Shown piece after piece: positions 2,812-59,913 of a DNA stretch of 64,000 nucleotides; position 1 is the first letter of the stretch, and each line of letters starts with the position of its first letter. Source of the stretch: an uncultured Rikenellaceae bacterium. GTDB taxonomy: Bacteria > Bacteroidota > Bacteroidia > Bacteroidales > VadinHA17. The position numbers were made by a program, and so were the translations under genes. The stretch lies in the NCBI GenBank assembly GCA_964638955.1, contig CAZWZQ010000004.1:32371-96370 (forward strand), in the 5' to 3' direction. The notes below the pieces were generated by a model. That model saw only the letters and a list, made by a program, of their open reading frames with translations, was not told the DNA's origin and did not search any database.

Positions 2812-5541
2812 ATGAAAACAATTCACCTATCCATCATGCTGTTTCTTATGTCAGCAGTCATCTATTCACAGGATTTGAAAGTCAGAGATGTGACTGTAGA
2901 ATACAAAAAGAATCCAACAGGCATTGATACCCGGAAACCAAGATTCTCATGGAAGATCACCGGCACAGGCACCGGTATAATGCAAACTGCATATTCTATC
3001 AGGGTGGCAACAGATCAGAAATTTCCAAAAAGTAAGATGATCTGGCAATCGGGGAAAAGAGGTTCGGATGAATCAGTTCTGATTGAATACAATGGTCCCG
3101 CTTTAAAATCAGGACAGAAATATTTCTGGCAGGTAAAGGTGTGGGACAACAAAAAGAGGCAATCGAAATGGAGCGAAACCGCATACTGGGAAACGGGATT
3201 ACTTTCCCCTTCGGACTGGAAAGCAAAATGGATAGAAATGCAGGGTGATACGCTACGCTATGCTCCGTCGCCGCATTTCCGTAAAGAGTTTTCAGTTACA
3301 AAACCTGTAGCAAAAGCAACAGTATATGTAACATCACACGGTCTGTATGAACTTCATCTTAACGGTAAAAAGGTTGGCGATCAAGTACTTACGCCAGGAT
3401 GGACATCATATGGTAAAAGGCTTCAGTACCAGGTATTTGATGTTACAAATCAGGTTACAAGAGGGAAGAATGCCATTGGGGCCGTTCTTGGCGACGGCTG
3501 GTACCGTGGTACTCTTGGCTGGAGCAATAACTGGTCAATATACGGTAAACGTCTCGGCCTCCTGATGCAGCTAAGGATAATATACGCCGATGGCAGTGAA
3601 GATCTTATAATCACGGATGAAACGTGGGAATGCAATAATGACGGTGCCATAAGGATGAGCGATATTTACAACGGTGAAGAATATGATGCCGGCAAAAAGC
3701 TGACCGGATGGAATCGACCGGATTATAATGACCAATCCTGGGAAAAAGTGAGGACAGGGAATTACAGCAATAACCTGATTGCCTCTGAAAGCGTTCCTGT
3801 CAGGAAGATAGAAGAGATCAAACCGGTTAAGATCTTTACAACGCCTAAAGGAAGTCTGGTGGCTGATATGGGACAAAATATGGTTGGATGGATAAGACTT
3901 AAAGTTACAGGACCAAAAGGTACTGTTATAACAGTGCGCCATGCAGAGGTTCTCGACAAGTATGGTGAGTTTTATACTGAGAATTTACGATCAGCAAAAG
4001 CTCAGTTTAACTATACACTTTCAGGGGCAGGTGAAGAGATATATGAACCCCGTTTTACTTTCTTTGGATTCAGATTCATAGAGGTTACAGGTTTTCCCGG
4101 TATTCTTTCGGCTGATAATATAACAGGTGTTGTTGTACATTCAGATATGAGGCCGACAGGTATATTTGAATGTTCTAATCCCTTGTTGAACCAGCTTCAG
4201 CATAATATAAAATGGGGTCAGAAAGGGAATTTTGTGGATGTGCCTACCGATTGTCCTCAGAGAGATGAACGCCTCGGATGGACAGGTGATGCCCAGGCAT
4301 TCAGCAGAACTGCCGCATTTAACCATAATGTTGCACCTTTCTTTACCAAATGGCTCAAGGATGTTGCTCTTGATCAGAAACCGGGTGGTGAAATTCCTGA
4401 TGTCATACCGGATGTGCTAAACAGGCAGGATGCAAAAACAGCCAGTCCTTCAGCAGGATGGGGCGATGTGGCAGTTATCGTTCCCTGGACAATGTACACG
4501 GTTTACGGCGACAGGCATCTGCTTGAAGTGCAATATCCCAGTATGAAGGCATGGGTCGAATACATCAGGAATAGAGCGGGCGAAGATTATATCTGGAACG
4601 GAGGCAGCAAATACGGTGACTGGCTATTCTATCATCCGCCCGTAAATAATCACTCGGAACCTGACGGCCATACCGACCATGATTTTATAGCAACAGCCTT
4701 CTATGCATATTCAACATCCCTCCTTGCTGATGCAGCAAAGGAACTTGGCAAAACAGATGACGAAAAGTACTACAGAGAGCTCTTCAATAAGATCAAAACA
4801 GTCTTCATTAATGAATATGTGACACCAGCAGGTCGTGTCGGGACCAATTCACAGACCTCATACGTGCTTGCCATTATGTTTGATCTTCTGCCTGAAAACC
4901 TCAGGGAGAAAGCAGCACAATTCCTTGTTGATGACATAAAAAGCCGAAGGAACCATCTTTCAACCGGTTTCCTGGGAACGCCTTTTCTGTGTTATGTGCT
5001 TACTCAAACCGGTCATTCTGATGTGGCCTATGATCTTCTTCTTCAGGAAACATACCCGTCGTGGCTATATCCTGTAAGAATGGGAGCCACAACAATCTGG
5101 GAACGGTGGGACGGTCAGAAGACCGACAGTACCTTCCAGGATGCCGGAATGAACTCGTTCAACCATTATGCTTACGGAGCAATAGGCGACTGGATGTACA
5201 GGGTGTCAGCAGGATTAGATGCAAAATCACCGGGTTATAAAAAGTTACTTATTAAACCTTATATTTCAGACAAGCTTACTTATGCAAAAGCCACATTTGA
5301 AAGTCTTTACGGCACTGTCGTCTCAGGATGGGAAAGAAAAGAAGGAAAAATAATTGTAAAAGTGATAATCCCTGCAAATACGACGGCAGAGATACTGCTT
5401 CCTGAAGGTGATCCTGAACAAATATCTGAAAGCGGAACAGCAGTAATGGGAAACAGGAAACTTTTATCAGTAGGTAAAGAAAATGGCAGGACGGCTATAA
5501 CAGCAGGATCTGGAGAGTATTTATTTGAGTTTGCGGAATAG
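2812..5541 (+). CDS. alpha-L-rhamnosidase, glycoside hydrolase family 78, secreted
   Basis: 909 aa with an N-terminal signal peptide. It has the GH78 hallmark ..DVPTDCPQRDERLGWTGDAQAF.. and a size typical of the family. It is divergent from rhaT. Confidence 0.9.
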   Translation: MKTIHLSIMLFLMSAVIYSQDLKVRDVTVEYKKNPTGIDTRKPRFSWKITGTGTGIMQTAYSIRVATDQKFPKSKMIWQSGKRGSDESVLIEYNGPALKSGQKYFWQVKVWDNKKRQSKWSETAYWETGLLSPSDWKAKWIEMQGDTLRYAPSPHFRKEFSVTKPVAKATVYVTSHGLYELHLNGKKVGDQVLTPGWTSYGKRLQYQVFDVTNQVTRGKNAIGAVLGDGWYRGTLGWSNNWSIYGKRLGLLMQLRIIYADGSEDLIITDETWECNNDGAIRMSDIYNGEEYDAGKKLTGWNRPDYNDQSWEKVRTGNYSNNLIASESVPVRKIEEIKPVKIFTTPKGSLVADMGQNMVGWIRLKVTGPKGTVITVRHAEVLDKYGEFYTENLRSAKAQFNYTLSGAGEEIYEPRFTFFGFRFIEVTGFPGILSADNITGVVVHSDMRPTGIFECSNPLLNQLQHNIKWGQKGNFVDVPTDCPQRDERLGWTGDAQAFSRTAAFNHNVAPFFTKWLKDVALDQKPGGEIPDVIPDVLNRQDAKTASPSAGWGDVAVIVPWTMYTVYGDRHLLEVQYPSMKAWVEYIRNRAGEDYIWNGGSKYGDWLFYHPPVNNHSEPDGHTDHDFIATAFYAYSTSLLADAAKELGKTDDEKYYRELFNKIKTVFINEYVTPAGRVGTNSQTSYVLAIMFDLLPENLREKAAQFLVDDIKSRRNHLSTGFLGTPFLCYVLTQTGHSDVAYDLLLQETYPSWLYPVRMGATTIWERWDGQKTDSTFQDAGMNSFNHYAYGAIGDWMYRVSAGLDAKSPGYKKLLIKPYISDKLTYAKATFESLYGTVVSGWERKEGKIIVKVIIPANTTAEILLPEGDPEQISESGTAVMGNRKLLSVGKENGRTAITAGSGEYLFEFAE

Positions 5542-6444
5542 ATGGAGTTTTTCAGAGATCATTACGGTGAGTTTGCCGCTCTTTTGACTGCTTTCTTCTG
5601 GACTATAACTGCTCTTGCTTTCGAATCGGCCAGCAGGAAATTGGGCTCTATTGCAGTAAATCTACTGCGGCTTATTCTGGGTTTCATTTTCGTGAGCATA
5701 TTTGTCCTGATCTACAGGGGTATGATTTTCCCGGTTGATGCAGGACCTCAAAACTGGTTATGGCTTTTACTTTCGGGACTCATAGGTTTTGTTTTCGGCG
5801 ATCTGTTTCTTTTTAAATCATTCACAATCATCGGATCAAGATTTGCCATGCTCATTATGACTCTGGTCCCTCCCATCACTGCATTTTTCGGGTGGCTGAT
5901 AATGGATGAACATCTTGAACTCATTCATTATATTGGCATGACACTCACATTTTCGGGTATTGCTCTTGCTATTTTCAGCCGTCCGGCCAAAGGTGAAAAG
6001 TTATCACTGAAACTTGCACCACTGGGTATTTTATATGCACTGGTAGGCGCTGTGGGCCAGGCCCTTGGATTAGTATTAAGCAAGAAGGGAGTGAAGGATT
6101 ATGATCCTTTCGCTGCTACTCAAATACGAGTCATGGCAGGAATGGCAGGCTTTGCGGTACTTGTAACTGTTATGGGGAGGTGGAAAAACATCAGGACAGC
6201 TTTAACAAACAGGCAGGGAATGAAAGCACTTACCCTTGGATCTTTTTTCGGACCATTTCTCGGGGTGTCATTTTCACTGGTAGCAGTAAAATTCACCGAA
6301 GCAGGTATAGCTTCAACACTCATGGCAATGGTTCCAATATTCATAATAGCTCCTGCAGTAGTTCTGTATAAAGAAAAGGTAACAATAGCAGAGATAATCG
6401 GAGCTATAGTAAGTGTGGGAGGCGTAGCGTTATTCTTCATGTAA
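5542..6444 (+). CDS. EamA/DMT-superfamily transporter
   Basis: 300 aa with about 10 predicted TM helices arranged as a two-fold EamA-like repeat. Its start codon directly abuts the GH78 stop (TAG-ATG). Confidence 0.7.
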   Translation: MEFFRDHYGEFAALLTAFFWTITALAFESASRKLGSIAVNLLRLILGFIFVSIFVLIYRGMIFPVDAGPQNWLWLLLSGLIGFVFGDLFLFKSFTIIGSRFAMLIMTLVPPITAFFGWLIMDEHLELIHYIGMTLTFSGIALAIFSRPAKGEKLSLKLAPLGILYALVGAVGQALGLVLSKKGVKDYDPFAATQIRVMAGMAGFAVLVTVMGRWKNIRTALTNRQGMKALTLGSFFGPFLGVSFSLVAVKFTEAGIASTLMAMVPIFIIAPAVVLYKEKVTIAEIIGAIVSVGGVALFFM

Positions 6445-47715: not shown

Positions 47716-47907
47716 ATGAGTTCAACGGAAATAATATTAATAATCGTTGCCTTTATCGCGCTCGGATTCAGCCTGTACAGGAGGTTCAAAGGAAAAGGGC
47801 AGGGACCGGGTGGTCCGCAGTCGGGTCAGAGGTCAGGATCATCATTCTCATCACATTCAGAAGATGGTGATTATGAACCATATTCTAAAAGTAACAGGCA
47901 GAATTGA
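47716..47907 (+). CDS. small single-TM protein with a Gly/Ser/Gln-rich tail (hypothetical)
   Basis: 63 aa: MSSTEIILIIVAFIALGFSLYRRFKGKGQGPGG... The TM helix is clean. The ORF ends exactly where the convergent HlyD gene ends. Confidence 0.4.
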   Translation: MSSTEIILIIVAFIALGFSLYRRFKGKGQGPGGPQSGQRSGSSFSSHSEDGDYEPYSKSNRQN

Positions 47908-49200
47908 TCATCTGCTTTTGTTTCTGGATATAAGATACCTGAACGGATTAATAATCTTTTGAATTAATCTTAAATCTTCAGTAACTATTTCCGCCGTTCC
48001 CTGCATATTCTGGGAAAAATCGAGTTCCCGTCCATACAGGGTTGTTAGTCCTTTTGGAAGGAATACTTCTATTATATAGGCATCACCGGAAGGTACAAGA
48101 GATTTCGAACTAACTACACCCCTGATCATACCATATTCCAGATAAGGGAACCCACTCAGCTTTATATTTACAATCTGGTCAATCTTCACTTTCCCGGATC
48201 GTTGCATTTTCAGGTTTATTCTGCCAACGAAATCACCAGTCTCTTCCGGTACAATAGATAATACAGGCTGATCGACAGTAACAGACTGATTTTCACTCCA
48301 GTACTTAGTAAAAGCCACTTTGCCCTCAAAAGGAGAAATAAGAAGGTAATTGTTTTGCCATATCTTCATTTGTGCTTTAAGGTTCAGTAATGCTTCCTCC
48401 AGTGCGGAAATTAGTTTCTCCTTATCGGTCTGTCTGTTTATCCTGTAATCCTGAAGCATCTGCCTTTTTTCAGCAAGTTCAATTACCTTGGCTGAATGAT
48501 CAAGCCTGACTTCCTGTAGTTCCAGGCTGGTTCTGATAAATGATTGTCTCGAATTTTCTATATCGCTCTCAGAATAAACCTTGCCGGAATACAGTATTGA
48601 ATCTCTTTCATATTTCCTTTTTTCTATCTCCAGATTCTGGGCGACAAGATCCTCCTTGATCTTTATCCTTTCAATATATTCCTGTATTCCTTCTATTTCC
48701 CCGGTTATTGATTGTATTTTATTTCCATACAAATCATTGGTTATATATGTATTATAATCCGAAAGCACCTTCATGAAGGATGCATAATATGCCTGGAGCT
48801 CACCAAGCTCATAAAGATCAGGAAATGATTCAGTTACTAACGCATCAGGTTTTTTGATTGTATCAATGATTGTCCTGAGCAGATCTATTTCACTTATTGA
48901 TGCCGCAGTCTCCATCACTGCAAGGAGTCTTCCCGGCAAAACCTTTTCTCCGTCACTTACATATAATTTATTTATCCGGCCTGTTATTTTACTAACCAGT
49001 GTTACCGGCGGATTTACAGTGGTAATCTCAATAGGTGCAGGTACTACATCGGGGTATTTTATCAACCATGATAATAATATTAATACAGCGAATACAAGGA
49101 ATATCACAGTTGTCCCCCATCTTATTATCCTCCTGGGCGGATTTGAGATTATTTCCTTAACAGCATCAGAATATAGTATCTCAGGTTTGTTATTTTTCAT
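47908..49200 (-). CDS. HlyD-family secretion adaptor (bacteriocin/peptide exporter accessory)
   Basis: 430 aa with an N-terminal TM helix, coiled-coil and barrel regions. It lies 9 nt downstream of the C39-ABC gene. Confidence 0.85.
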   Translation of the reverse strand: MKNNKPEILYSDAVKEIISNPPRRIIRWGTTVIFLVFAVLILLSWLIKYPDVVPAPIEITTVNPPVTLVSKITGRINKLYVSDGEKVLPGRLLAVMETAASISEIDLLRTIIDTIKKPDALVTESFPDLYELGELQAYYASFMKVLSDYNTYITNDLYGNKIQSITGEIEGIQEYIERIKIKEDLVAQNLEIEKRKYERDSILYSGKVYSESDIENSRQSFIRTSLELQEVRLDHSAKVIELAEKRQMLQDYRINRQTDKEKLISALEEALLNLKAQMKIWQNNYLLISPFEGKVAFTKYWSENQSVTVDQPVLSIVPEETGDFVGRINLKMQRSGKVKIDQIVNIKLSGFPYLEYGMIRGVVSSKSLVPSGDAYIIEVFLPKGLTTLYGRELDFSQNMQGTAEIVTEDLRLIQKIINPFRYLISRNKSR

Positions 49201-49209
49201 CTTCCCTGT

Positions 49210-51396
49210 TTACTTTCCGAGTTCAAGCTGGTTTTTCACCAGGTTAAAATAGGCTCCTTTATTTTGAATAAGGGATTCATGAGTTCCGGTTTCGACTATT
49301 CTTCCGTTATCCATAACAATAATTTTATCAGCATCCCGAACCGTACTTAGCCTGTGAGCAACTATTATCACCGTTTTGCCTTTAAAGAAATCCGCAAGAT
49401 TCTCAACGATTGCCTTTTCATTATTTGCATCGAGTGAATTGGTGGCTTCATCAAAAATAATTATCTCAGGATCCTTATAGACAACCCGTGCTATCAGAAG
49501 TCTTTGCATTTGTCCCTCACTCAATCCATGTCCATTCGCGCCAATTTTTGTATTATAACCGAGAGGCAGCGACTCTATGAATCCCTTAATATTTGCTATC
49601 TCAGCGGCTTTCACCATTTTATCCTCATCAATTTCAGCTATCCCGGGGGCAATATTTGATGCTATCGATTCAGGAAAAAGAAATCCATCCTGCATTACCG
49701 CTCCCGTCTTTTCGCGCCATATTCTAAGGCTGAGATTTGGGAGGCGAGTATCACCAATAAGTATCTCTCCTGCTACCGGTTTATAAAACCCAAGCAACAG
49801 CTTCAGCAGTGTTGTCTTACCGCTACCGCTGGTCCCTACAATTGCCGTTGTTTTATTTTCCTCAATATAAAGGTCAACATCTTTAAGTGCATACGGTGAA
49901 TTAGGTCCCTCATACTGAAATGACACATTATTTATAAAAAGATCCTTTTTTTCGGGAAGCTTTCTCACCTTCATCCCGGGTTCATGCTCCTCATTTTCCA
50001 TTTCATGCACTTCGGCCAGTCTGTTAAGGCTCATCTTTGCGTCCTGCGACATCCGGAAAAAACTAATGATCTGGTTCACAGGTACATTCAACTGGCCTAT
50101 TATGAACTGGACTGCGAGCATCATACCAAGGGTCATTGCTCCTTTCAGAACGGCTGTTGCAGCAACAACAGTTATCAGCAGGTTTGTGACCTCATTGATG
50201 AATGTTGCTCCTGCTGACTGATACTGAATGATACCAAGTCCTTTTACCTTTAGTCCGAACAGAGTTGCCTGCAGCCTTTCCCAGTCCCATCTTTTACTTG
50301 TCTCGCTCTGTGTCAGTTTTATCTCCTGTATCCCGTTCACAATGTTTATAAGTTTGCTGCCTGCAATTGACATCTGCTTAAAACGCTGATGATCGAGTTT
50401 TGCTCTCGGCTGCATGAACAACGATATCCATAAAATATACATTATTGTTCCTGCCAGGAACAGAGTAAGTATCTTGATGCTGAAAATTGCCAGTACTATT
50501 CCGAATATTACCAGGTTAAAGAATGAGAATAATATAGAAAGGCTTGCTGATGTCAGGAATTCTTCGATCCTGTTGTTATCTTCTATCCTCTGGAGAATGT
50601 CCCCTGTTAGTTTCGTATCAAAAAATGATATCGGCAATGACATCAGTTTCTGGAGGAAACCGGAAATTATAGCCACGTTGACCCGGGTTCCGATATGTAA
50701 AAGAAGCCATCCCCTGATAAATTCCACCGACATTCGTCCTATTACCAGAGCAAGCTGGGCAAAAAGAATCAGGTAAATAAAGCCTATATCGTTATTATTC
50801 AGACCAATATCAACTATCGACTGTGTCAGGAAAGGGATAATGAGCTGTATACAGCTTCCAATCAGCAGACCAAGGATAAGCTGATAAAAATACTTATCAT
50901 AAAGCCTGAAGTATTTAAAAAGAAATCTGAATCCACGTGATTTTTCATGTTCGCTTTCCTTTTCAAAAAATGCAGGTGTAGGCTCAATTATCAAAACAAG
51001 TCCTGCCGGTTTACCATCGGCCATTGTGGATGCCCAGTTCCTTGTAAATTCCTCCCTGTCATATTTTACCGGTCCTACTGCAGGATCGGCTGCCCATATT
51101 TTGTCATTTTTAATTTTATATACTACTATAAAATGACGCTGTTTCCAGTGCACTATACATGGCAAAGGGACATTCCCGGTGAGCATTTCAAAGGGAATCT
51201 TAACTCCAATGGTCCGGAAGCCAAGAGAATCAGCAGCTTCAGAAAGACCTAAGAATGATACTCCTTCCCTGGTTATAAAACACCTCTTGCGGATAGATTC
51301 GAGAGAAAAGCTTTTCTTATAAAACGCTGCAACCATTTTCAGACATGCAGGTCCGCAATCCATGGCATCAGGCTGTTTTACAAAAGGAAAAGACAT
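49210..51396 (-). CDS. peptide-cleaving ABC exporter with an N-terminal C39 cysteine-peptidase domain
   Basis: 728 aa. The catalytic Cys is retained (..QPDAMDCGPACLKMV..) and there is a His-containing ..HFIVVYKI.. segment. It has 6 TM helices, Walker A ..GTSGSGKTT.., the signature ..LSEGQMQR.. and Walker B ..IIIFDEAT... Confidence 0.9.
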   Translation of the reverse strand: MSFPFVKQPDAMDCGPACLKMVAAFYKKSFSLESIRKRCFITREGVSFLGLSEAADSLGFRTIGVKIPFEMLTGNVPLPCIVHWKQRHFIVVYKIKNDKIWAADPAVGPVKYDREEFTRNWASTMADGKPAGLVLIIEPTPAFFEKESEHEKSRGFRFLFKYFRLYDKYFYQLILGLLIGSCIQLIIPFLTQSIVDIGLNNNDIGFIYLILFAQLALVIGRMSVEFIRGWLLLHIGTRVNVAIISGFLQKLMSLPISFFDTKLTGDILQRIEDNNRIEEFLTSASLSILFSFFNLVIFGIVLAIFSIKILTLFLAGTIMYILWISLFMQPRAKLDHQRFKQMSIAGSKLINIVNGIQEIKLTQSETSKRWDWERLQATLFGLKVKGLGIIQYQSAGATFINEVTNLLITVVAATAVLKGAMTLGMMLAVQFIIGQLNVPVNQIISFFRMSQDAKMSLNRLAEVHEMENEEHEPGMKVRKLPEKKDLFINNVSFQYEGPNSPYALKDVDLYIEENKTTAIVGTSGSGKTTLLKLLLGFYKPVAGEILIGDTRLPNLSLRIWREKTGAVMQDGFLFPESIASNIAPGIAEIDEDKMVKAAEIANIKGFIESLPLGYNTKIGANGHGLSEGQMQRLLIARVVYKDPEIIIFDEATNSLDANNEKAIVENLADFFKGKTVIIVAHRLSTVRDADKIIVMDNGRIVETGTHESLIQNKGAYFNLVKNQLELGK

Positions 51397-51497
51397 CTCT
51401 CTTTCGGAAATAGGTTGTTAGATCAGATAAAGATATTTATATTTTAAATAGGACATAGCGATACTCCTTATAAAATCAAATCCTGCTTCATCTTTCA

Positions 51498-51527
51498 ATA
51501 GTATTCGTGTGTGAAATACTATATTTG
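51498..51527 (+). promoter_or_regulatory. inverted repeat overlapping a perfect -7 box upstream of the sigma-factor gene
   Basis: ATAGTATT (51498-51505), a 9-nt spacer, then AATACTAT (51515-51522). TATATTTG (51520-51527) fits the Bacteroidota TAnnTTTG consensus and lies about 27 nt before the sigma start. Confidence 0.45.
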
Positions 51528-51553
51528 CCAGTTGATACTGTATCATTGCGGGC

Positions 51554-52120
51554 TTGTTTAAAAGAATTTCAGATAAGAACATAATTGAGGGTATTAAAAA
51601 TCAGGACGATAAAACCCTGGAATGGCTGTATGATAATTATTTTCAAACAGTTAAAAATCATGTCATTAGAAACAGCGGTACTGAAGAGGATGTTTCTGAT
51701 GTATTTCAGGATTCAATCATCGTATTGTACAGCCAGATCACTGAAAACAGTCTTAAACTAACTACAGACCTGAAGGGTTATTTTTTCGGAGTGGCACGAA
51801 ATGTCTGGAATGCCCAGTTGAGAAAAAAGAGAAAAATCAGAGAACTTGACATCGATATACCCGATGAAGCGGATGCTGATGAATCAAATGAACTGTTGTT
51901 TGAACGAATTATTTCGAAGGCTTTCCAGAAACTAAAACCCGACTGTCAGACAATACTTACTTTGTACTCTGAGGGAATATCTTATGATGAGATTTCAGTC
52001 AGAATGAATCTTAAAAATGAGATTTATGCACGCAGGAAGAAGTATCTCTGCAAGGAATTGCTTATGGAACTTGTAAAAAAGGATCCCGAATATCAGGAGT
52101 ATTTACGGTACCTTAGATGA
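51554..52120 (+). CDS. sigma-70 family (ECF-like) RNA polymerase sigma factor
   Basis: 188 aa with a region-2-like segment ..EEDVSDVFQDSIIVLY.. and a region-4 HTH ..ILTLYSEGISYDEISVRMNL... The track uses a TTG start. Confidence 0.75.
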   Translation: MFKRISDKNIIEGIKNQDDKTLEWLYDNYFQTVKNHVIRNSGTEEDVSDVFQDSIIVLYSQITENSLKLTTDLKGYFFGVARNVWNAQLRKKRKIRELDIDIPDEADADESNELLFERIISKAFQKLKPDCQTILTLYSEGISYDEISVRMNLKNEIYARRKKYLCKELLMELVKKDPEYQEYLRYLR

Positions 52121-55100
52121 TAAGCCATTATTATAACCAGGATAAGTACGAAACATCCTGCAGTTATCGTCAGAATTCGTGAAGAAAAAACCGGGGAAAC
52201 GTCGCCATATATAACCAGGGAAGACCAGAAGTAAGGATGGGATTTCAGCTGGCTTGCATTTTTCAGATATGCTTGCCTGGCTCTCTTCAATGATACACTT
52301 TTTGATTTTCCTTTCAGCAGGTTATCATAAAATAATTTGATTATTTCGGTTCCGGACCGGTCTTCTATCTCCCACATTGACATTACAACTGACTGACTGC
52401 CTGAATACAGGAATCCACGTGCAAGACTCAGGATTCCTTCACCTGACGATAATGAACCGGAACCGGTATTGCATGAGCTGAGTACCACCATTCGGGCTTT
52501 CAAGGGGATCCCATAAACCTCATAGGTATTCAGCAATCCATCTTCAGGCATATCACCGTTTTGCATGAATATCATTGCAGAGTTCATAGGATTTTTGTCA
52601 TTAAGGTATGTATGCATCGCCAGGTGAATAATATCATATTTCCCTGCTTCAGCCTTAAAAACAGATTCCCTGGCATTGTCGTTCAAAAACAATACTCCTT
52701 CAGAAACACGTGCCACATATTCTGCCTCCTGGCGTGCATACGGAAGGTCATCCAGGATTTTGCCTCCTGTCTGCCGTTTCATGAATAACGAATCAACATT
52801 CAGGGTACCGGGATACATAGGAGCAAATGCAACAAGATTTTTTGCTCTGCCATATATACCATTTCCAGCCTCCTGCATAAATGAAACAGAATAAGTATAT
52901 GAAACACTGAAATCATTCATCAGATAGGGCAATTTTCGATACATAATGTCTTCCCCGTCATAAGTCGAAGTTAAAAGTGTTTCATATGGAAGGTAAGAGA
53001 GCATATTATCGGGAGAGATTAGCAGATCGGGCGAAATGAAATATTTCCGGACAGGCTCAATCAGTGTTTTATAGAGATCATATCCGACTTCCTGATATGA
53101 ATTGAAGTTCTTTCTCGCATGTGCTGACAGATCAGGGTTTGAGAGATGCTTCCTGAAATCCATGATTCTGTTAATGAAAACAGAATCTATTTTAACTGTT
53201 GTAAGATGCTGATGTTTCCGGTTTACTACCAGGATATAAAGCACGGAATCTGAAACGATGTAGTTCAGATAATTGCCTTTATGCCCTATTATTGAGGGAA
53301 CATCCTCCATTGACGGTACTGCAGTATTGTATTTTAAGGTATAGTATTCCGGATAATCGCGTTCGTATGTTAAGATCAGCGAGTCCCTTTTTTTTATAAC
53401 TTCCAGCAGATTCGCATTCCATTCTGACAGCATCTCCTTTTGAGGTTTTTCTTTTTCATTCTCCGCAGATATCCTGGAGTTATAATATCCTATCTCTCTT
53501 TGAAGAGAATGTTCAAGCTCTGCAATTGCCTGTGGAATATGGAAGTTAACTGCATTTAGTTCGCGAGTAGCTGCAAGCAATCCCGCCACCTTACTCTTTT
53601 CTGCGTACTCAAAAGCTTTTTCAAGAAATCTTTGTTCTCCGGTACTTCTGAAACATAGTTCAAAGTCACGTATTGAATTAAGATATGATCTCCTGTAATT
53701 GTCTCCCAGGATAATCCTGCTCTCCTCTTCGCTTATGTTTATCCTTATTCTTTCGATCAGGTTTATCACTAATTCAGAAGTAGATGCAGCTGATACAAGG
53801 ACTTCATATTCTTCAGATACTTCATACAAGTTCCATAATATATCATATTTAGTCTTAAATATCCGTAATGTGCGATTGTCTGCTTTAAGCATGTCGGGAT
53901 CAGGATTTTCATAAAGATCAGGTGTTACCCCCGGAGCTACATCAGAAAACAGAAGCTCCTGAATCTTTTTCAGTGCCTTTTGGGATTCTCCGGTTTCTGA
54001 CAACGCCATTGCATATCCGGTGATCACCGGTTCTCTTAAAGTAACCTCATCATTGTGACGGTCGAGGTAATCAAGACAAAGCAAATAGTAATTTAATGAA
54101 TTCTGATAATCATGGATATAGATCCTCAGATATTCAGCATAATTCTTGAGCACTTCAGCATAAAATCTTGAATCAGTACCAAATACGGCTTTTGCTTTCA
54201 CAAGCAGAGCCGAGAGTAATTCTACACCACTGGATATCTTTCCGGCATTACCCAGCTCAATTGCATAGCTGTTGATCATATTATATGCCAGATATGAGTC
54301 ATTGGCTTCTGCCATCTCAATTCCCCTTTCAAAATATTCTGCTTCCTTTTCTGTTAATACCAGCTTGCCGTATGTTATCGCCATGTTGTTGATCAGATTG
54401 ATATAGTTCTGATTATTAGATACAACACCTTTATTAAGGATCGACTCGGCTTCTTCAAAATAAATTCTTGCCTTTGCATAATCATATAGGCGTGCATAGC
54501 CAGCTCCTATGTTAATATAAAGATTGCTAAGTTCATCATCAGTAAAGATGTTCTTATTAGAATTCAGGATTTCAAGTGTCAGGAATGTATATTTTCGGAA
54601 ATTCTCGTAATCCTTATTTTCAAGAGAAGCTCCGATAACGGTTGAATACGCAGTTGCAATCTCAGGGCTATAAGAACCGTATAACTTTGTACCGATATCG
54701 ATATACTGAAGCATATAATCGATTACTCTGTCGAATTCACCCAGGTAGTTATAAGCCACTCCAAGATTGTAGATTCCTTTAGCATAATGATCGTCAATGA
54801 CACCCTGCTTTTTTTTGAAATCTATAGAAAGATGCAGCCAGGGAAGAGCCTCTTTATGTCTTTCAGCAAGCAATTTGCAGACCCCTGTATAATAATATAT
54901 ATCAGCAAGTTCGGAGCTGTCAGAAATGCTTACTGCCAGATTCTTTATGAGTGTATCTGAAAGCGATAATAATCCGGCTGTATCTCCGGCAGAATAGAGT
55001 GTAATAATGGTTGACCCTATCCTTTCAAGTATAACAGGTTGCTTCTGTTGAACAGCTTTTACAGAAGATATGCATGTTATTCCTGAGATAAGGAGTACCG

Positions 55101-55167
55101 GCACAAAAAAACGCAATCTTTTTTTTCTTCTGTTCATAGGTATGTTTACAACCTTTATTTTTATCAA
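52093..55167 (-). CDS. TPR-CHAT protein (caspase-fold protease) with an N-terminal signal sequence and a C-terminal TM anchor
   Basis: 1024 aa. The N-terminus ..RRKKRLRFFVPVLLISGITCISSVKA.. is followed by about 600 aa of TPR-like repeats. The C-terminal CHAT domain has the His/Cys dyad motifs ..YDIIHLAMHT.. and ..MVVLSSCNTGSG... The terminal hydrophobic helix is ..ILTITAGCFVLILVIIMAYHL... Confidence 0.8.
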   Translation of the reverse strand: MIKIKVVNIPMNRRKKRLRFFVPVLLISGITCISSVKAVQQKQPVILERIGSTIITLYSAGDTAGLLSLSDTLIKNLAVSISDSSELADIYYYTGVCKLLAERHKEALPWLHLSIDFKKKQGVIDDHYAKGIYNLGVAYNYLGEFDRVIDYMLQYIDIGTKLYGSYSPEIATAYSTVIGASLENKDYENFRKYTFLTLEILNSNKNIFTDDELSNLYINIGAGYARLYDYAKARIYFEEAESILNKGVVSNNQNYINLINNMAITYGKLVLTEKEAEYFERGIEMAEANDSYLAYNMINSYAIELGNAGKISSGVELLSALLVKAKAVFGTDSRFYAEVLKNYAEYLRIYIHDYQNSLNYYLLCLDYLDRHNDEVTLREPVITGYAMALSETGESQKALKKIQELLFSDVAPGVTPDLYENPDPDMLKADNRTLRIFKTKYDILWNLYEVSEEYEVLVSAASTSELVINLIERIRINISEEESRIILGDNYRRSYLNSIRDFELCFRSTGEQRFLEKAFEYAEKSKVAGLLAATRELNAVNFHIPQAIAELEHSLQREIGYYNSRISAENEKEKPQKEMLSEWNANLLEVIKKRDSLILTYERDYPEYYTLKYNTAVPSMEDVPSIIGHKGNYLNYIVSDSVLYILVVNRKHQHLTTVKIDSVFINRIMDFRKHLSNPDLSAHARKNFNSYQEVGYDLYKTLIEPVRKYFISPDLLISPDNMLSYLPYETLLTSTYDGEDIMYRKLPYLMNDFSVSYTYSVSFMQEAGNGIYGRAKNLVAFAPMYPGTLNVDSLFMKRQTGGKILDDLPYARQEAEYVARVSEGVLFLNDNARESVFKAEAGKYDIIHLAMHTYLNDKNPMNSAMIFMQNGDMPEDGLLNTYEVYGIPLKARMVVLSSCNTGSGSLSSGEGILSLARGFLYSGSQSVVMSMWEIEDRSGTEIIKLFYDNLLKGKSKSVSLKRARQAYLKNASQLKSHPYFWSSLVIYGDVSPVFSSRILTITAGCFVLILVIIMAYHLRYRKYS

Positions 55168-55290
55168 GAATAAAACTAATGTTTTTTATTCAGGTTTTTT
55201 ATTTCCTAATTAGCTGATTACCTGTGTTTGTTATAAAAAATGCTTTTTTTCTGTTATTTTTATGTCACAAATCAGGGATATATGACATGT

Positions 55291-55323
55291 AGTATTGAAA
55301 TACCCTGAATTAGTTTCAATACT
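55291..55323 (+). promoter_or_regulatory. 10-bp perfect inverted repeat immediately upstream of the peptide gene
   Basis: AGTATTGAAA (55291-55300), a 13-nt spacer, then TTTCAATACT (55314-55323). It shares AGTATT/AATACT half-sites with the repeat at 51498-51522. Confidence 0.45.
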
Positions 55324-55327
55324 TAAA

Positions 55328-55477
55328 ATGAAAACAATGAAAACCCTGAATTACGAAAAAACGGAAGACATTTTTGCTGAGTTTGTATTGTCAAACGACG
55401 AAATGATTAAAGTACGTGGTGGTGAAGGTGAAGGTGAACCCATAATTCTACCTAATCCTCCACCGGTAAAAATCTGA
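55328..55477 (+). CDS. double-glycine-leader precursor peptide; predicted core EGEGEPIILPNPPPVKI
   Basis: MKTMKTLNYEKTEDIFAEFVLSNDEMIKVRGG|EGEGEPIILPNPPPVKI*. The leader fits the Bacteroidota GG-leader pattern (..LsxxEMxxixGG). An alternative ATG lies at 55337, and the track's TTG at 55295 is unlikely. A C39-ABC exporter lies 4 kb away. Confidence 0.7.
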   Translation: MKTMKTLNYEKTEDIFAEFVLSNDEMIKVRGGEGEGEPIILPNPPPVKI

Positions 55478-55490
55478 TAATAAATAAGAG

Positions 55491-55625
55491 GCCTGTCATT
55501 GAGACAGGTAATGATTTACCTGGTCGCAGGTAAATCGTAGGAAGCAGTCACATATTGTGACTCTGCAGGGAAGAGTACATTTAATACCAATTAATCTGAT
55601 GCTATATTTATGTGATATACAGCAT
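55491..55625 (+). terminator. cluster of four hairpins downstream of the peptide gene (attenuator or processing region)
   Basis: The hairpins are CCTGTC-attga-GACAGG (55492-55508), ATTTACCTG-gtcg-CAGGTAAAT (55514-55535, 9 bp perfect), AGTCACA-tat-TGTGACT (55546-55562) and the imperfect ATGCTATAT/ATATAcAGCAT (55599-55625). None has a clear U-run. Confidence 0.4.
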
Positions 55626-55669
55626 ATTAGATAATTAGTTTAATTAACAGAATTTTAAAAATACAGCAT

Positions 55670-56431
55670 ATGAAAGAAAATTTTATTAAACCAATCGACT
55701 TTTCTTATTTCATCGAAAGGTATAACTCGGGTGAAATGAATGAAGCTGAACTGACATGGTTCCGCAAAGAACTGGATGGAAATGAACAGCTTCGGAGAGA
55801 AGTAGAATTAAGGAAAAAAGCTGATATGGTTCTTAAAAACCATGATGTTATTCAGTTACGAAGTAAGCTTTCAAATATTGAGAGTAAAAGGGCAGCAGAA
55901 GAACCTGTTAAAATCCGGGTTAAGCGTATTCCACTAGGATATGCTGCAGCAATTGCCGGTTTTATCCTGGTTAGCAGTATTTTTCTATTTAACGGCAGGA
56001 AGCTGACCAGTGATGAAATTCTCGACCGGTTCTACAAATCTTATGAGGTTACTTCACCCTCAAGGTCTCAACAAGCCATTTTAAATTCTGATTATTCAAC
56101 GGCAATTGAATTCTACAACATCCGTGATTACAGAAATGCTGCCCTTTATTTCAGTAAAGTACTGTCAGAGGATCCGAAATACATGGAATCCACCATGTTA
56201 TACGGAGTTTCCAATTTCGAGATCAAAGACTACCCGGAAGCAAAGCATTCATTCATGAAGGTTATTGATGATAACGATAACCTGTTTTTAGAGGATGCTG
56301 AATGGTACCTTGCTCTATGTTACCTTAAAACCCAAGAAACGGAAAAAGCTGCTGATGTGCTGGATCAGATAAAAAGATCGGAAAGCATATATAAAAAGGA
56401 TGCAGCACGGATAATGAGAAAAATGAAATAA
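55670..56431 (+). CDS. single-pass membrane protein, anti-sigma-like: cytoplasmic helical N-domain and extracytoplasmic TPR domain
   Basis: 253 aa with a TM helix ..IPLGYAAAIAGFILVSSIFLF.. at roughly residues 87-107. The C-terminal ~145 aa have TPR-like repeats (..AIEFYNIRDYRNAALYFSKVL.., ..AEWYLALCYLKTQETEKAADVL..). There is no zinc-finger anti-sigma motif. Confidence 0.55.
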   Translation: MKENFIKPIDFSYFIERYNSGEMNEAELTWFRKELDGNEQLRREVELRKKADMVLKNHDVIQLRSKLSNIESKRAAEEPVKIRVKRIPLGYAAAIAGFILVSSIFLFNGRKLTSDEILDRFYKSYEVTSPSRSQQAILNSDYSTAIEFYNIRDYRNAALYFSKVLSEDPKYMESTMLYGVSNFEIKDYPEAKHSFMKVIDDNDNLFLEDAEWYLALCYLKTQETEKAADVLDQIKRSESIYKKDAARIMRKMK

Positions 56432-56461
56432 ATATATATCTCCTTATTATTCTATTTCAGG

Positions 56462-57268
56462 ATGGATATTGATAAAGACAGAGAGGAATGTGGCGGATTA
56501 AAGGATTTGAATTCTTTAACTAATATGATAAACTGCCCCACAGTACTGCACGGTATGTCTCATGAAGTGAGAACACACATGAATGCAATAGTAGCGCTTT
56601 CATTCCTCATAAACAGAAATAATTGCAATAAAAAGGAACGCGAAGAATACAGTGACCAGATCCTTGCCTCATGTGAGCAGCTTATAGGCCTTTTTGATAA
56701 TTTTCTCGATTCAGCAATAATTGAAACAGGTGGTAATTCACAAACAAACTTAAATATCTGCAAACTCAACAATCTTCTGGAAGATCTTTTTTCAGAATTC
56801 AGGGTAATACTTAAAAAGGAAGTCTATAAGGATTTGACACTAATCACCAACAACAATCTTAATGAAGCAACCGGGGTTTTTATTGATTCTGACAGGGTGT
56901 TCAGGGTAATTCGTAACCTTTTTCAGAATGCACTTAAAAATACCACATCAGGTTATATTAAGATTGGTTATTCTTTCAGGGATAATGAGGTGACTTTTTA
57001 CGTAATCGACTCCGGCCAGGGTTATTTCAAATGCAAAGAATTTCTTCATACAGAGGATTTAAACGACTCGCTGACTCAATACAATGATACAATTTCAGCG
57101 ATAAACCTGACCCTGGCCAAAAAATTAATCAGCATGCTGGGCGGAACACTATGGATAGAGTGCAATGGCATCACCGGCACCGGTATTTATTTTTCCATAC
57201 CGGTCAAAATTGCGGAAAGCTCAGATATCAACATAAATAAGTTTGTCAATACCATGATCGCAATCTGA
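56462..57268 (+). CDS. soluble histidine kinase core (HisKA plus HATPase_c) without a sensor domain
   Basis: 268 aa with the H-box ..MSHEVRTHMNAI.. about 40 aa from the N-terminus, N-box ..RNLFQNALKNT.., G1 ..VIDSGQG.. and G2 ..GITGTGIYF... It has no TM helix. No response regulator is present in the window. Confidence 0.75.
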   Translation: MDIDKDREECGGLKDLNSLTNMINCPTVLHGMSHEVRTHMNAIVALSFLINRNNCNKKEREEYSDQILASCEQLIGLFDNFLDSAIIETGGNSQTNLNICKLNNLLEDLFSEFRVILKKEVYKDLTLITNNNLNEATGVFIDSDRVFRVIRNLFQNALKNTTSGYIKIGYSFRDNEVTFYVIDSGQGYFKCKEFLHTEDLNDSLTQYNDTISAINLTLAKKLISMLGGTLWIECNGITGTGIYFSIPVKIAESSDININKFVNTMIAI

Positions 57269-57340
57269 TACTATTTTGCTGCAATGTCTGAATGCAATTA
57301 AGCATGAGATGAAGTGGCCGTCATTTTAAAGACAGGCCAC

Positions 57341-59283: not shown

Positions 59284-59913
59284 TCAGGGTATATGCATAT
59301 ATTTATGGACCTGGAGAGATATCCTCCATACGCTATTGTTTTTAACATAATCAACAATTTCCGTTATAATCCTTTCGAAGCTGCTCCATTCAGGTTGAAG
59401 AAAAAGCCGGCATTTCTCATTAACCTGATTACGATATTCTTCGGCCCACTCAAAATCGGCTTTTTCCTGAATAACTACTTTCAGTTCGTCGGCCACCTTG
59501 CATATTTCAGGAACGGGCTTCATGTTTTTTTTAGGAGAGAGACATATCCAGTCCCATTTGCCTGTAAGGGGATATGCTCCCGATGTTTCAAGGTAAGTGG
59601 AGATATTCTTTTTTTTCAACTTGGAACACAGATAATCAAGATTCCACATGAGAGGTTCGCCTCCTGTTATTACTACAGAATCCGTTCCGGAATTAATTAT
59701 ACGGTTTGCAATATCATCAGCATTTGTCATTGGGTGTATTTCAGGATCCCAGGTGAAAGGTGAATCACACCAGCTGCATCCTATATCACAGCCTCCAAGT
59801 CGTATGAAATATGCTGCTTTCCCGGTATGGAATCCTTCGCCCTGGATTGAAAAAAAATCTTCTACAAGTGGTAATTTTTTCCCTTGCGTATTTTGTTCCG
59901 GTTGTTTTATCAT
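59284..59913 (-). CDS. queE: 7-carboxy-7-deazaguanine synthase (radical SAM)
   Basis: 209 aa with ..FFSIQGEGFHTGKAAYFIRLGGCDIGCSWCDS.., the QueE N-terminal cluster motif. Confidence 0.85.
   Translation of the reverse strand: MIKQPEQNTQGKKLPLVEDFFSIQGEGFHTGKAAYFIRLGGCDIGCSWCDSPFTWDPEIHPMTNADDIANRIINSGTDSVVITGGEPLMWNLDYLCSKLKKKNISTYLETSGAYPLTGKWDWICLSPKKNMKPVPEICKVADELKVVIQEKADFEWAEEYRNQVNEKCRLFLQPEWSSFERIITEIVDYVKNNSVWRISLQVHKYMHIP

Follow-up and report, generated by a model that had tools for sequence, protein, structure and literature searches.

The present work concerns a small gene for a double-glycine leader peptide and the gene block around it in an uncultured Rikenellaceae bacterium of the Bacteroidales. 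The DNA analysed is a stretch of 64,000 nucleotides (contig CAZWZQ010000004.1 of assembly GCA_964638955.1, positions 32,371 to 96,370 of the forward strand), which is called the window here and to which all coordinates refer. The peptide gene occupies 55337-55477 on the plus strand and codes for 46 residues from an ATG at 55337. The block around it codes for a C39-peptidase exporter of the ATP-binding cassette (ABC) type with a HlyD-type adaptor, a sigma factor of the extracytoplasmic function (ECF) type, a TPR-CHAT caspase-like protease, a TPR membrane protein of 253 residues (TPR253 in what follows) and a histidine kinase. It is very probable that 55337-55477 is a real exported-peptide gene of this module. 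The features are collected in Table 1.

The peptide gene and its partners

An open reading frame (ORF) listed at 55295-55477 on the plus strand is present, and its 3' part reads ...FAEFVLSNDEMIKVRGGEGEGEPIILPNPPPVKI, that is FAEFVLSNDEMIKVRGG|EGEGEPIILPNPPPVKI. The original prediction listed the ORF from 55295, a start that turned out to be wrong. The conserved start is the ATG at 55337, and the N-terminus MKT(L)N is common to 78 distinct orthologues. The TTG at 55295, which would give a 60-codon ORF, was rejected as a start, the spacing between two copies of a short repeat at the 5' end being 28-48 nt and out of frame across loci. Because the distance between the copies is not a multiple of three, both the TTG-55295 extension and the upstream repeat copy are non-coding. 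A 49-residue ORF from the ATG at 55328 was likewise rejected as the conserved start. In current annotation the gene is mostly uncalled, or it is given wrong starts (49, 60, 64 or 72 residues).

A word-based search found nine close homologues of 84-96% identity, all of them in syntenic loci. Sixteen orthologues of the CHAT protein were aligned, and 80 loci were then taken from species-representative genomes, all of which are metagenome-assembled genomes of uncultured Bacteroidales. The search for small ORFs in related genomes that had been proposed for this gene was carried out with the peptide profile over the six-frame ORFs of these CHAT-orthologue loci. It recovered the peptide gene in about 78 of the 80, as a small ORF directly upstream of the CHAT gene and divergent from it. 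In the reverse test metagenome contigs were scanned from the peptide (a 13-sequence sub-alignment), and this gave 80 further loci; every one with enough flank had CHAT upstream and the TPR and kinase genes downstream. The association holds in both search directions, and the peptide gene belongs obligately with those for the TPR-CHAT protease, the TPR protein and the kinase. When the profile of 78 sequences was run with HMMER against 1.84 billion representatives, 115 clusters were found at E <= 1e-3. The family is compact, and its weakest members retain the leader, with cores that have drifted. Comparison of the peptide with NCBIfam and Pfam gave no family match even at E <= 10. The same was true of the TIGRFAM-type GG-leader families of Bacteroidota, with which a comparison had been recommended, and of the NCBIfam models for Bacteroidota GG-peptides and radical-SAM (rSAM) targets. 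The neighbourhood is syntenic over 80 genomes, including the genes for DUF349, a PorE-like protein and QueE, and the locus is a core one, vertically inherited between housekeeping genes.

The entropy of the leader nucleotides at codon positions 1, 2 and 3 is 0.62, 0.61 and 1.16. In the two Gly codons positions 1 and 2 are invariant and position 3 is nearly random, and the length differences in the acidic head of the core are whole codons. These codon statistics indicate purifying selection on the peptide as a protein, and by the same pattern a purely non-coding reading of the locus was ruled out. Transcription was observed in three lake-water metatranscriptomes, which contained contigs over the peptide, TPR and kinase genes of a relative about 90-95% identical. 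The contigs span 55282-55573, 55314-55549 and 55366-55521, plus parts of the TPR and kinase genes, and they run through the peptide gene into the region of stem-loops behind its stop codon. As read off the listed positions, they differ from the window mostly at third codon positions. The peptide gene is therefore transcribed in nature, in a relative.

The double glycine at the end of the leader, from which the original prediction had started, is borne out by the family. Residues 25-29 of the leader read KVRGG, and G28 and G29 are invariant in the 78 orthologues. Counted from the cleavage site, L-12, M-7, G-2 and G-1 are invariant, E-8 is kept in at least 90%, and position -4 is always V or I (V in the window). 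Position -15 is Glu and not hydrophobic, with Phe at -14 and -17. An AlphaFold2 (AF2) model places leader helices at residues 6-14 and 20-26 and shows an extended core, with a mean pLDDT (per-residue model confidence) of 74. Thus the double glycine at -2/-1, the leader positions -4, -7, -8 and -12 and a cognate C39 exporter in the locus are all found. By this sequence-level definition the peptide would be a substrate of a peptidase-containing ABC transporter (PCAT), expected to be cleaved after GG and exported.

The 17-residue core in the window has no Cys, Ser, Thr or aromatic residue, as had been noted, and its net charge is about -2. Some orthologous cores do contain Cys, Ser or Thr (e.g. 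KPCLPPVKI), with Cys at core position -7 in 4 of 79 cores, but no such column is conserved. Counted from the C-terminus, the consensus is [E/D]-P-I-φ-[K/L]-P-x-x-P-P-[I/V]-K-I. Position -13 is E or D in 71/79 cores and -12 is P in 66/79; they are followed by I/T/V at -11, I/V/L at -10, K/L at -9 and P at -8 (60/79). Positions -7 and -6 are variable, P stands at -5 in 79/79 and at -4 in 64/79, and the end is formed by I/V at -3, K/I/R at -2 and I/L at -1. The head between GG and the E/D-P pair is rich in Gly, Asp, Glu and Asn and has 0-8 residues, and core lengths are 12-21 residues. The question of whether tail or head is conserved, which had been left to an alignment of the cores, is answered in favour of the proline-rich tail; the acidic head appears to be the variable part. 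Within the tail the proline framework is fixed, variation being found at positions -9, -7, -6 and -2; the 64 species compared have 59 different tails.

The exporter gave a Peptidase_C39 match at E = 2.4e-35, and the motifs MDC14GPAC, H83W/H88F and D104P are present. Its catalytic Cys/His/Asp triad is intact, and it is presumed to be the processing and export machine of the peptide. In the CHAT protein H848/H852 and C899 are invariant in the orthologue alignment. Its predicted topology consists of an N-terminal signal or anchor segment (RRKKRLR followed by a hydrophobic stretch) and a C-terminal transmembrane (TM) helix, with no cytoplasmic domain. The TPR array is predicted, from sequence and model, to be extracytoplasmic, i.e. 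periplasmic. The AF2 model of the protein has a mean pLDDT of 72, confident in the TPR part and weaker in the CHAT part. The best folds for it in the Protein Data Bank (PDB) are craspase Csx29 (7zoq_A, top), separase (9hn4_B) and DdvA (8rw5 and 8rot), all with low TM-scores. A PDB sequence search with the CHAT protein gave generic TPR matches only, and its match to NF041237 was marginal (E = 0.0024, far under the cut-off). By sequence TPR253 has a signal/TM segment and an external TPR domain. The kinase has neither a TM segment nor a sensor domain and is cytoplasmic. No modification enzyme was found in the block across about 160 loci. The nearby radical-SAM gene at 59284-59913 is QueE and the adjoining OmpA-type gene is PorE-like; neither is part of the peptide system.

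Mean pairwise identity differs strongly among these genes. The C39-ABC exporter is the most conserved of the region (0.79), followed by QueE (0.71), the PorE-like protein (0.67), the sigma factor (0.66), the leader (0.58), the external TPR domain of the 253-residue protein (0.53), the peptide tail (0.49) and the TPR region of the CHAT protein (0.46). For a peptide exporter to stand above the flanking housekeeping genes is out of the ordinary and may point to a role that is nearly essential. Evolution is fastest in the peptide tail and in both extracytoplasmic TPR regions, which fits a co-diversification of ligand and receptor but also weak constraint.

Two observations on the CHAT gene may be added. 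The N-terminal hydrophobic segment of its product ends in a Cys that is kept in the orthologue consensus (...CFS), and the protein may also be a lipoprotein, besides having the C-terminal TM helix. The 3' ends of the sigma (+) and CHAT (-) genes overlap convergently by 28 nt (52093-52120), and close or overlapping convergent ends of the two genes also occur in related loci with listed gene calls.

Table 1. Coordinates of the genes and sequence elements of the peptide block in the window
Feature	Position	Strand	Remarks
HlyD-type periplasmic adaptor	47908..49200	-	TIGR01843, HlyD_3; 71/80 loci
C39-peptidase ABC exporter (PCAT)	49210..51396	-	Pfam Peptidase_C39, ABC_membrane, ABC_tran; 79/80 loci
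ECF-type sigma-70 family factor	51554..52120	+	TIGR02937 53 bits, above cut-off; 79/80 loci
TPR-CHAT caspase-like protease, 1024 aa	52093..55167	-	Pfam CHAT E = 6.8e-54
Bipartite promoter-like motif TGTCACAAA-N12-(T/C)GACATGTA after T-run	55263..55291	+	Conserved upstream of peptide gene
5' hairpin/palindrome AGTATTGAAA ... TTTCAATACT, loop TACCCTGAATTAG	55291..55323	+	Predicted -9.2 kcal/mol, z = -3.5
Upstream non-coding repeat copy	55296..55312	+	Family consensus CGAATTACCCTGAATTA; window TGAAATACCCTGAATTA
Double-glycine leader MKTLNYEKTEDIFAEFVLSNDEMIKVRGG	55337..55423	+	29 aa; conserved positions in 78 orthologues
Second repeat copy AAAACCCTGAATTA, codons 2-6	55340..55353	+	Low third-position entropy
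Core EGEGEPIILPNPPPVKI and TGA stop	55424..55477	+	17 aa; C-terminus-anchored alignment of 79 cores
Three stem-loops after stop codon (terminator/stabiliser candidates)	55492..55566	+	Predicted -36 kcal/mol, z = -6.2
Single-pass TPR membrane protein, 253 aa (TPR253)	55670..56431	+	TPR Pfam at residues 142-238; 74/80 loci
Histidine kinase, 268 aa	56462..57268	+	HisKA and HATPase_c only; 66/80 loci
Kinase site 1, codons around F113-R114	56786..56811	+	Reverse complement of CCCTGAATT element; window AATTCAGGGT
Kinase site 2, codons D144-R151	56891..56913	+	Reverse complement of 5' untranslated region element

Promoter motif, repeat copies and complementarity to the kinase gene

A promoter-like motif, GTCACAA-N13-[GT]ACATG, is present in 77 of the 80 loci, each time in a single copy and always upstream of the peptide gene, and the 64-kb window has one occurrence of it. 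Its spacing is invariant in 76/76 loci and its core bases are invariant as well. The sigma and exporter genes have Bacteroidetes housekeeping -7 boxes (TAnnTTTG), which differ from the motif of the peptide gene. The promoter of the sigma gene is of the housekeeping type with a TAtATTTG box. The intergenic region between sigma and exporter genes (51397-51553) contains two strongly conserved boxes of this type, GGAAATACTATATTTGCC before the sigma gene and GTAAAGATATTTATATTTT, on the exporter strand, before the exporter. From this arrangement the peptide gene looks like the sole regulated output of the block. Comparison of 55100-55720 with Rfam yielded nothing beyond a chance match below the threshold (Bacteroid-trp, E = 0.65).

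In a few related loci the peptide gene is present in tandem. Locus L059 has five identical copies (4680-5601, minus strand), in which the internal copies keep the CGAATTACCCTGAAT element of the 5' untranslated region (UTR) and have no promoter motif. Two slightly different tandem copies each are found in L083 (5465-5769), L135 (138-485), L160 (1149-1481) and L168 (627-956).

It had been noticed in the original prediction that the first 17 nt of the gene recur upstream of it. This similarity is real. ATGAAAACCCTGAATTA at 55337-55353 and TTGAAATACCCTGAATTA at 55295-55312 share an exact 11-mer, ACCCTGAATTA, which in the window occurs only at 55302-55312 and 55343-55353. Of the two explanations offered at that time, a partial tandem duplication of the gene start was rejected as a recent event, since the two copies are retained even between loci with CHAT proteins of 45-60% identity. 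The other, a repeated binding site, survives in the form of a conserved functional element, which belongs to a four-site set with two reverse-complement copies in the kinase gene. The upstream copy lies 25-45 nt before the ATG and is conserved in most loci. Codons 2-4 of the peptide gene have a third-position entropy of 0.3-0.6, the rest of the gene having about 1.5, and the codons used are not preferred ones, ACC making up 20% of the Thr codons and CTG 29% of the Leu codons of the window. The low third-position entropy with non-preferred codons, together with the conservation of the upstream copy, argues that both copies are constrained at the nucleotide level.

The upstream copy forms the loop of a predicted hairpin, the stem of which is AGUAUUGAAA/UUUCAAUACU in the window and is retained in many orthologues. 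In 32 orthologues 74% of the cells were paired compared with 31-47% in slid controls, a count in which the hairpin pairing was entered as a named structure and which is biased toward the hairpin to that extent. Changes on both sides of the stem were seen in 14 cells, e.g. AGGTTTGAAA/TTTCAAACCT. RNAalifold gave no consensus structure on the 32 5' regions. What had been called a duplicated 5' end thus appears to be a conserved pair of CCCUGAA elements, one of them in the loop of a 5'-UTR hairpin and the other over codons 3-5.

The kinase gene contains the reverse complement of the CCCTGAA element at two places, on the strand of the peptide gene, so that the elements are complementary in RNA. At site 1 the reverse complement ACCCTGAATTCTGAAAAAAG matches the start of the peptide coding sequence, ACCCTGAATTACGAAAAAAC, at 17 of 19 positions in the window. 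At site 2 the reverse-complement consensus CGAATTACCCTGAA is the same 14-mer as the UTR element, with an exact match at 56900-56913, and over 77 distinct pairs the UTR element and the reverse complement of site 2 are 75% identical over 14 nt. In clades where site 2 has lost its TGAA part the UTR element has lost TGAA too. The codons of the kinase gene at these places are kept to an unusual degree. Among 92 conserved Arg columns from all proteins of the locus (codon conservation median 43%, 90th percentile 59%), the highest is kinase R148, with AGG in 93% of 60 loci, and the second is R114, with AGG in 92% of 63 loci; of the Arg codons in the window 27% are AGG. The two kinase sites therefore seem to be constrained beyond the protein level.

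For 63 loci each messenger was scanned for the longest stretch exactly complementary to the 5' region of the peptide gene. Against a background of 5.3-6.0 nt, the kinase mRNA shows its strongest peak at codon 147, within site 2, where the complement averages 10.2 nt and reaches 9 nt or more in 71% of the loci. A second peak, averaging 8.3 nt, belongs to site 1 and covers codons 109-113. The TPR mRNA rises to 7.7 nt at most (codons 9-11) and the sigma mRNA to 6.6 nt. When 55285-55366 was paired with 40-nt windows of 55480-57300, the best duplex was obtained at 56870, which belongs to site 2, with -34.8 kcal/mol (about z = -5.4), the background over this region being -11.1 ± 4.4. Conserved complementarity with constraint on both partners, which is what a base-pairing regulator should display, is thus found here. 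It is most likely that the repeat elements couple the peptide mRNA to kinase expression by RNA-RNA pairing.

Some points count against pairing, and they bear on the alternative that all four CCCTGAA/TTCAGGG sites act simply as DNA sites, either as looping operators for one regulator or as inverted repeats of a recombinase. On double-stranded DNA the four sites are one motif in two orientations, and the wobble or compensatory signal expected of RNA helices is missing. Mismatches between the UTR element and site 2 are not enriched in G-U (41 against 57), and changes that are the same on both sides number 18 as against 16 that differ on both sides, so that compensatory changes are not in excess. 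Because of this lack of a wobble or compensatory excess, a shared DNA-binding site retains some probability. We nevertheless consider the DNA reading doubtful. The extended matches are pair-specific, that of the UTR element with site 2 running over 14 nt and that of the coding start with site 1 over 10-17 nt, which a single protein site would not predict. One copy also lies in the loop of a conserved hairpin, as do the seed regions of small RNAs. As regards a recombinase, the block codes for none, and the roughly 130 loci that contain both genes agree without exception in their orientation; an invertible DNA segment between inverted repeats was rejected on these grounds.

Weaker matches to the same 5' region were seen elsewhere. 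A possible third site on the kinase mRNA (56700-56740, plus strand, codons about 85-88) matches the 3' arm of the hairpin (AGTATCAATAC-type), the complement averaging 8.2 nt, reaching 9 nt or more in 48% of loci and amounting to only 8 nt in the window. A weak peak is present at the start of the TPR253 mRNA (55695-55710, plus strand, codons 7-13; mean 7.7 nt, at least 9 nt in 14% of loci). The R17 codon of TPR253 is also unusually conserved, with AGG in 74% of loci.

A candidate ligand for a TPR-CHAT protease

The best explanation that can be offered for the block is that the peptide is a PCAT-exported linear ligand, which is sensed by periplasmic TPR domains and gates a CHAT protease/sigma switch; we regard this as evenly poised between right and wrong. 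In such a circuit the peptide gene would be transcribed from its own bipartite promoter, TGTCACAAA-N12-GACATGTA, read by the ECF-type sigma factor of the locus. Because the leader is a textbook one and the catalytic triad is intact, the C39 domain of the exporter can be expected to cut after Gly28-Gly29, and the ABC/HlyD machine to export the 17-mer EGEGEPIILPNPPPVKI. The C-terminal 12-13 residues with their free carboxylate would act as a linear, unmodified ligand, and a second cut at the conserved E/D-P junction may first trim the peptide to PIILPNPPPVKI. The ligand would bind a periplasmic TPR domain, either that of the CHAT protease or that of the TPR membrane protein. This binding would switch the CHAT protease to cleave the anti-sigma-like TPR protein, by which the sigma factor would be freed. 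The freed sigma factor could transcribe the peptide gene and close a positive loop, a form of self-signalling of the quorum or kin type. At the same time the peptide mRNA and the kinase mRNA could pair via CCCUGAA/UUCAGGG, and the translation or abundance of the peptide mRNA would in this way be coupled to kinase expression. The whole taken together, a Gram-negative pheromone circuit with a periplasmic caspase-like protease as the receptor, with a species-specific peptide docking through its free C-terminus in a TPR domain, and with the peptide mRNA as a riboregulator of the kinase, the two messages controlling each other, is put forward tentatively, as a possibility with less in its favour than the ligand reading by itself.

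The original prediction had proposed an unmodified linear peptide, more like a pheromone than a toxin. Of the readings considered, this pheromone-like one is the best supported by the context, because there is no maturase in the conserved block, no conserved Cys, Ser or Thr, a vertical inheritance and a tie to TPR sensors and a sigma factor; a role as an effector keeps a smaller share of the probability.

Several observations weigh against the ligand circuit and should be stated. The link between the peptide and the TPR domains is one that we infer. Mutual information between peptide columns and partner columns gave no signal above the housekeeping controls; it was dominated by phylogeny, and the PorE-like protein, QueE and DUF349 scored as high as the CHAT protein and TPR253. 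In this lineage the promoter-like motif is absent upstream of the sigma gene and of the exporter gene, so that the signature of autoregulation is lacking, and it is a guess that the local sigma factor reads the motif of the peptide gene. The N-terminal 112 residues of TPR253 have no Pfam match, which leaves its anti-sigma identity without the support of a family. No gene for an outer-membrane channel was found in the block. The metatranscriptome contigs are of low depth and do not define transcript ends, and the tandem multi-copy arrays fit a dosage-driven effector as well.

This last point leads to the view that the peptide is the output of the system and not its signal. The sigma factor, the anti-sigma-like protein and the CHAT protease would respond to a different signal, for instance from envelope stress, a competitor or a phage, and would switch on the peptide gene; the exported product would be the effector, for example an antimicrobial, an anti-adhesive or a protective peptide. 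Such an arrangement is unlikely in our opinion, in spite of a good deal that agrees with it. The peptide gene alone in the locus has a special promoter, the tandem arrays with up to five identical copies suggest an effect of dosage, the cores differ among nearly all species, and the export of bacteriocins is common among PCAT/HlyD systems. Against it stands the core, which has 12-21 residues with an acidic head and a proline framework, is acidic to neutral and not cationic-amphipathic as in class II bacteriocins, and contains neither a disulfide nor GxxxG. No immunity gene was identified, there being no candidate between the CHAT and TPR genes, and a single-copy locus that is syntenic and vertically inherited in 80 genomes does not resemble bacteriocin islands. 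The conserved framework with its free C-terminus resembles a docking motif, as the ligand reading would have it.

It is also conceivable that the peptide serves the CHAT protease as substrate or pseudo-substrate, either as a securin-like inhibitor or with its head trimmed at E/D-P into an active 12-mer. The CHAT protein is a caspase-fold protease with an intact His/Cys dyad, its structural neighbour separase is controlled by a pseudo-substrate, and the acidic residue at -13 (71/79) stands directly before Pro -12 (66/79) at a fixed distance from the C-terminus, whatever the length of the head. But Pro at P1' is disfavoured by most caspase-fold enzymes, the E/D-P junction is absent in about 10% of cores, and the sequence does not separate this idea from simple ligand binding; on balance it is quite improbable. 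It would be surprising if the peptide were the precursor of a ribosomally synthesised and post-translationally modified peptide (RiPP) with its maturase elsewhere (for proline hydroxylation, epimerisation, or modification of Lys or of the C-terminus), for although conservation is higher in the leader than in the core, a pattern known from RiPPs, and distant family members have quite different cores, no modification enzyme is present in the block conserved over about 160 loci, the radical-SAM gene nearby is QueE, no Cys, Ser or Thr is conserved in the core, and the NCBIfam GG-peptide and rSAM-target models give no match at E <= 10.

Relation to known peptide and protease systems

As in the ComC/ComAB system of Streptococcus and the substrates of LahT and PCAT1, the leader proposed here has about 29 residues with L-12, E-8, M or L at -7, V or I at -4 and GG. 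As in PCAT systems in general, the gene for an ABC exporter with an N-terminal C39 domain and intact Cys/His/Asp is adjacent. The core is short, linear and probably unmodified, like the competence-stimulating peptide made from ComC. Unlike these examples, the present block belongs to a Gram-negative member of the Bacteroidales and has a HlyD adaptor. Unlike in the ComC system, the block contains no pair of membrane sensor kinase and response regulator, its sole kinase having neither sensor nor TM segment. The partners are a TPR-CHAT protease and a sigma/anti-sigma-like pair, and the core is proline-rich with a conserved C-terminus.

For the protease part the closest parallel is DdvA, a TPR-CHAT switch of an ECF-type sigma factor for which the trigger is unknown and thought to be derived from phage (PMC11506125). 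In both cases the gene for an ECF-type sigma factor is linked to that for a TPR-CHAT protein which has a His/Cys dyad and is extracytoplasmic (here by prediction), and the proposed logic is alike, a signal leading to site-1 cleavage by CHAT and then to release of sigma. In DdvA a zinc-binding anti-sigma domain is fused to TPR-CHAT, whereas here the CHAT protein and the anti-sigma-like protein of 253 residues are separate polypeptides. Unlike DdvA, the present block encodes an exported peptide and its exporter, and where the output of DdvA is a defence island, here it would be the peptide gene. By analogy the module may work like a split DdvA/DdvS switch, and it is not a member of that system because the fused zinc anti-sigma domain is lacking.

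In type III-E craspase the TPR-CHAT protease Csx29 cleaves Csx30 and thereby releases the ECF sigma factor CASP-sigma. There, as is proposed here, a ligand-activated TPR-CHAT protease acts on a sigma factor through cleavage of the inhibitor of that factor. Unlike the present system, craspase works in the cytoplasm and is guided by RNA, and the similarity of sequence is marginal. With the RRNPP systems of Firmicutes (Phr/Rap, PapR/PlcR, SHP/Rgg) the block has in common that the C-terminal end of an exported pro-peptide is the active or conserved part, that TPR proteins are receptors, here candidate ones, and that peptide sequences are specific to the species. The receptors of RRNPP systems are located in the cytoplasm, and the peptide has to be imported by Opp; here the TPR domains are predicted, from sequence and AF2 model, to be extracytoplasmic (periplasmic), and there are no Opp genes in the block. 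Export proceeds via Sec in RRNPP systems and would proceed via the PCAT here, and there is no sequence relationship.

Peptide mRNAs with a dual function, which pair with the mRNAs of regulators, are represented by RNAIII/hld of S. aureus, by psm-mec RNA acting on agrA mRNA and by pel/sagA RNA of group A Streptococcus. As in these, the mRNA of a small peptide has a C-rich element in a hairpin loop, and its complement lies in the coding part of a two-component-system gene from the same signalling locus. In the present block pairing is deduced from complementarity and codon constraint, and the presumed targets are far inside the kinase ORF, at about codons 113 and 147. We know of no dual-function peptide mRNA in Bacteroidota. 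The conserved complementarity between the leader of the peptide mRNA and the kinase coding sequence, which was an unexpected find, would add an example from Bacteroidota to this short list.

GG-leader peptides of Bacteroidota that are exported by C39 ABC transporters, as would be the case here, include the Bacteroidetocins and the rSAM-target families (TIGR04149-type). Bacteroidetocins are class IIa-like toxins of about 40 residues with a disulfide (PMC6671954). The rSAM-target families adjoin a radical-SAM/SPASM maturase, and neither such a maturase nor a disulfide of the Bacteroidetocin type is found here. For TPR-CHAT proteases outside CRISPR the locus offers a genetically encoded candidate for the activating ligand. 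Together with its exporter, with the protease and the presumed substrate of the latter, and with one dedicated promoter, this candidate lies in a block of 9.5 kb that is conserved in well over a hundred uncultured species. To our knowledge dedicated peptide signalling has not been established in Bacteroidota; none was found in the literature searched, nor was a description of this gene block.

At the other end of the block a gene for a 63-residue single-TM protein (47716-47907, plus strand) abuts the stop codon of the HlyD gene. It has no family match and lies distant from the peptide gene; it was found by tblastn in 44/80 loci at 36-61% identity and is weakly conserved.

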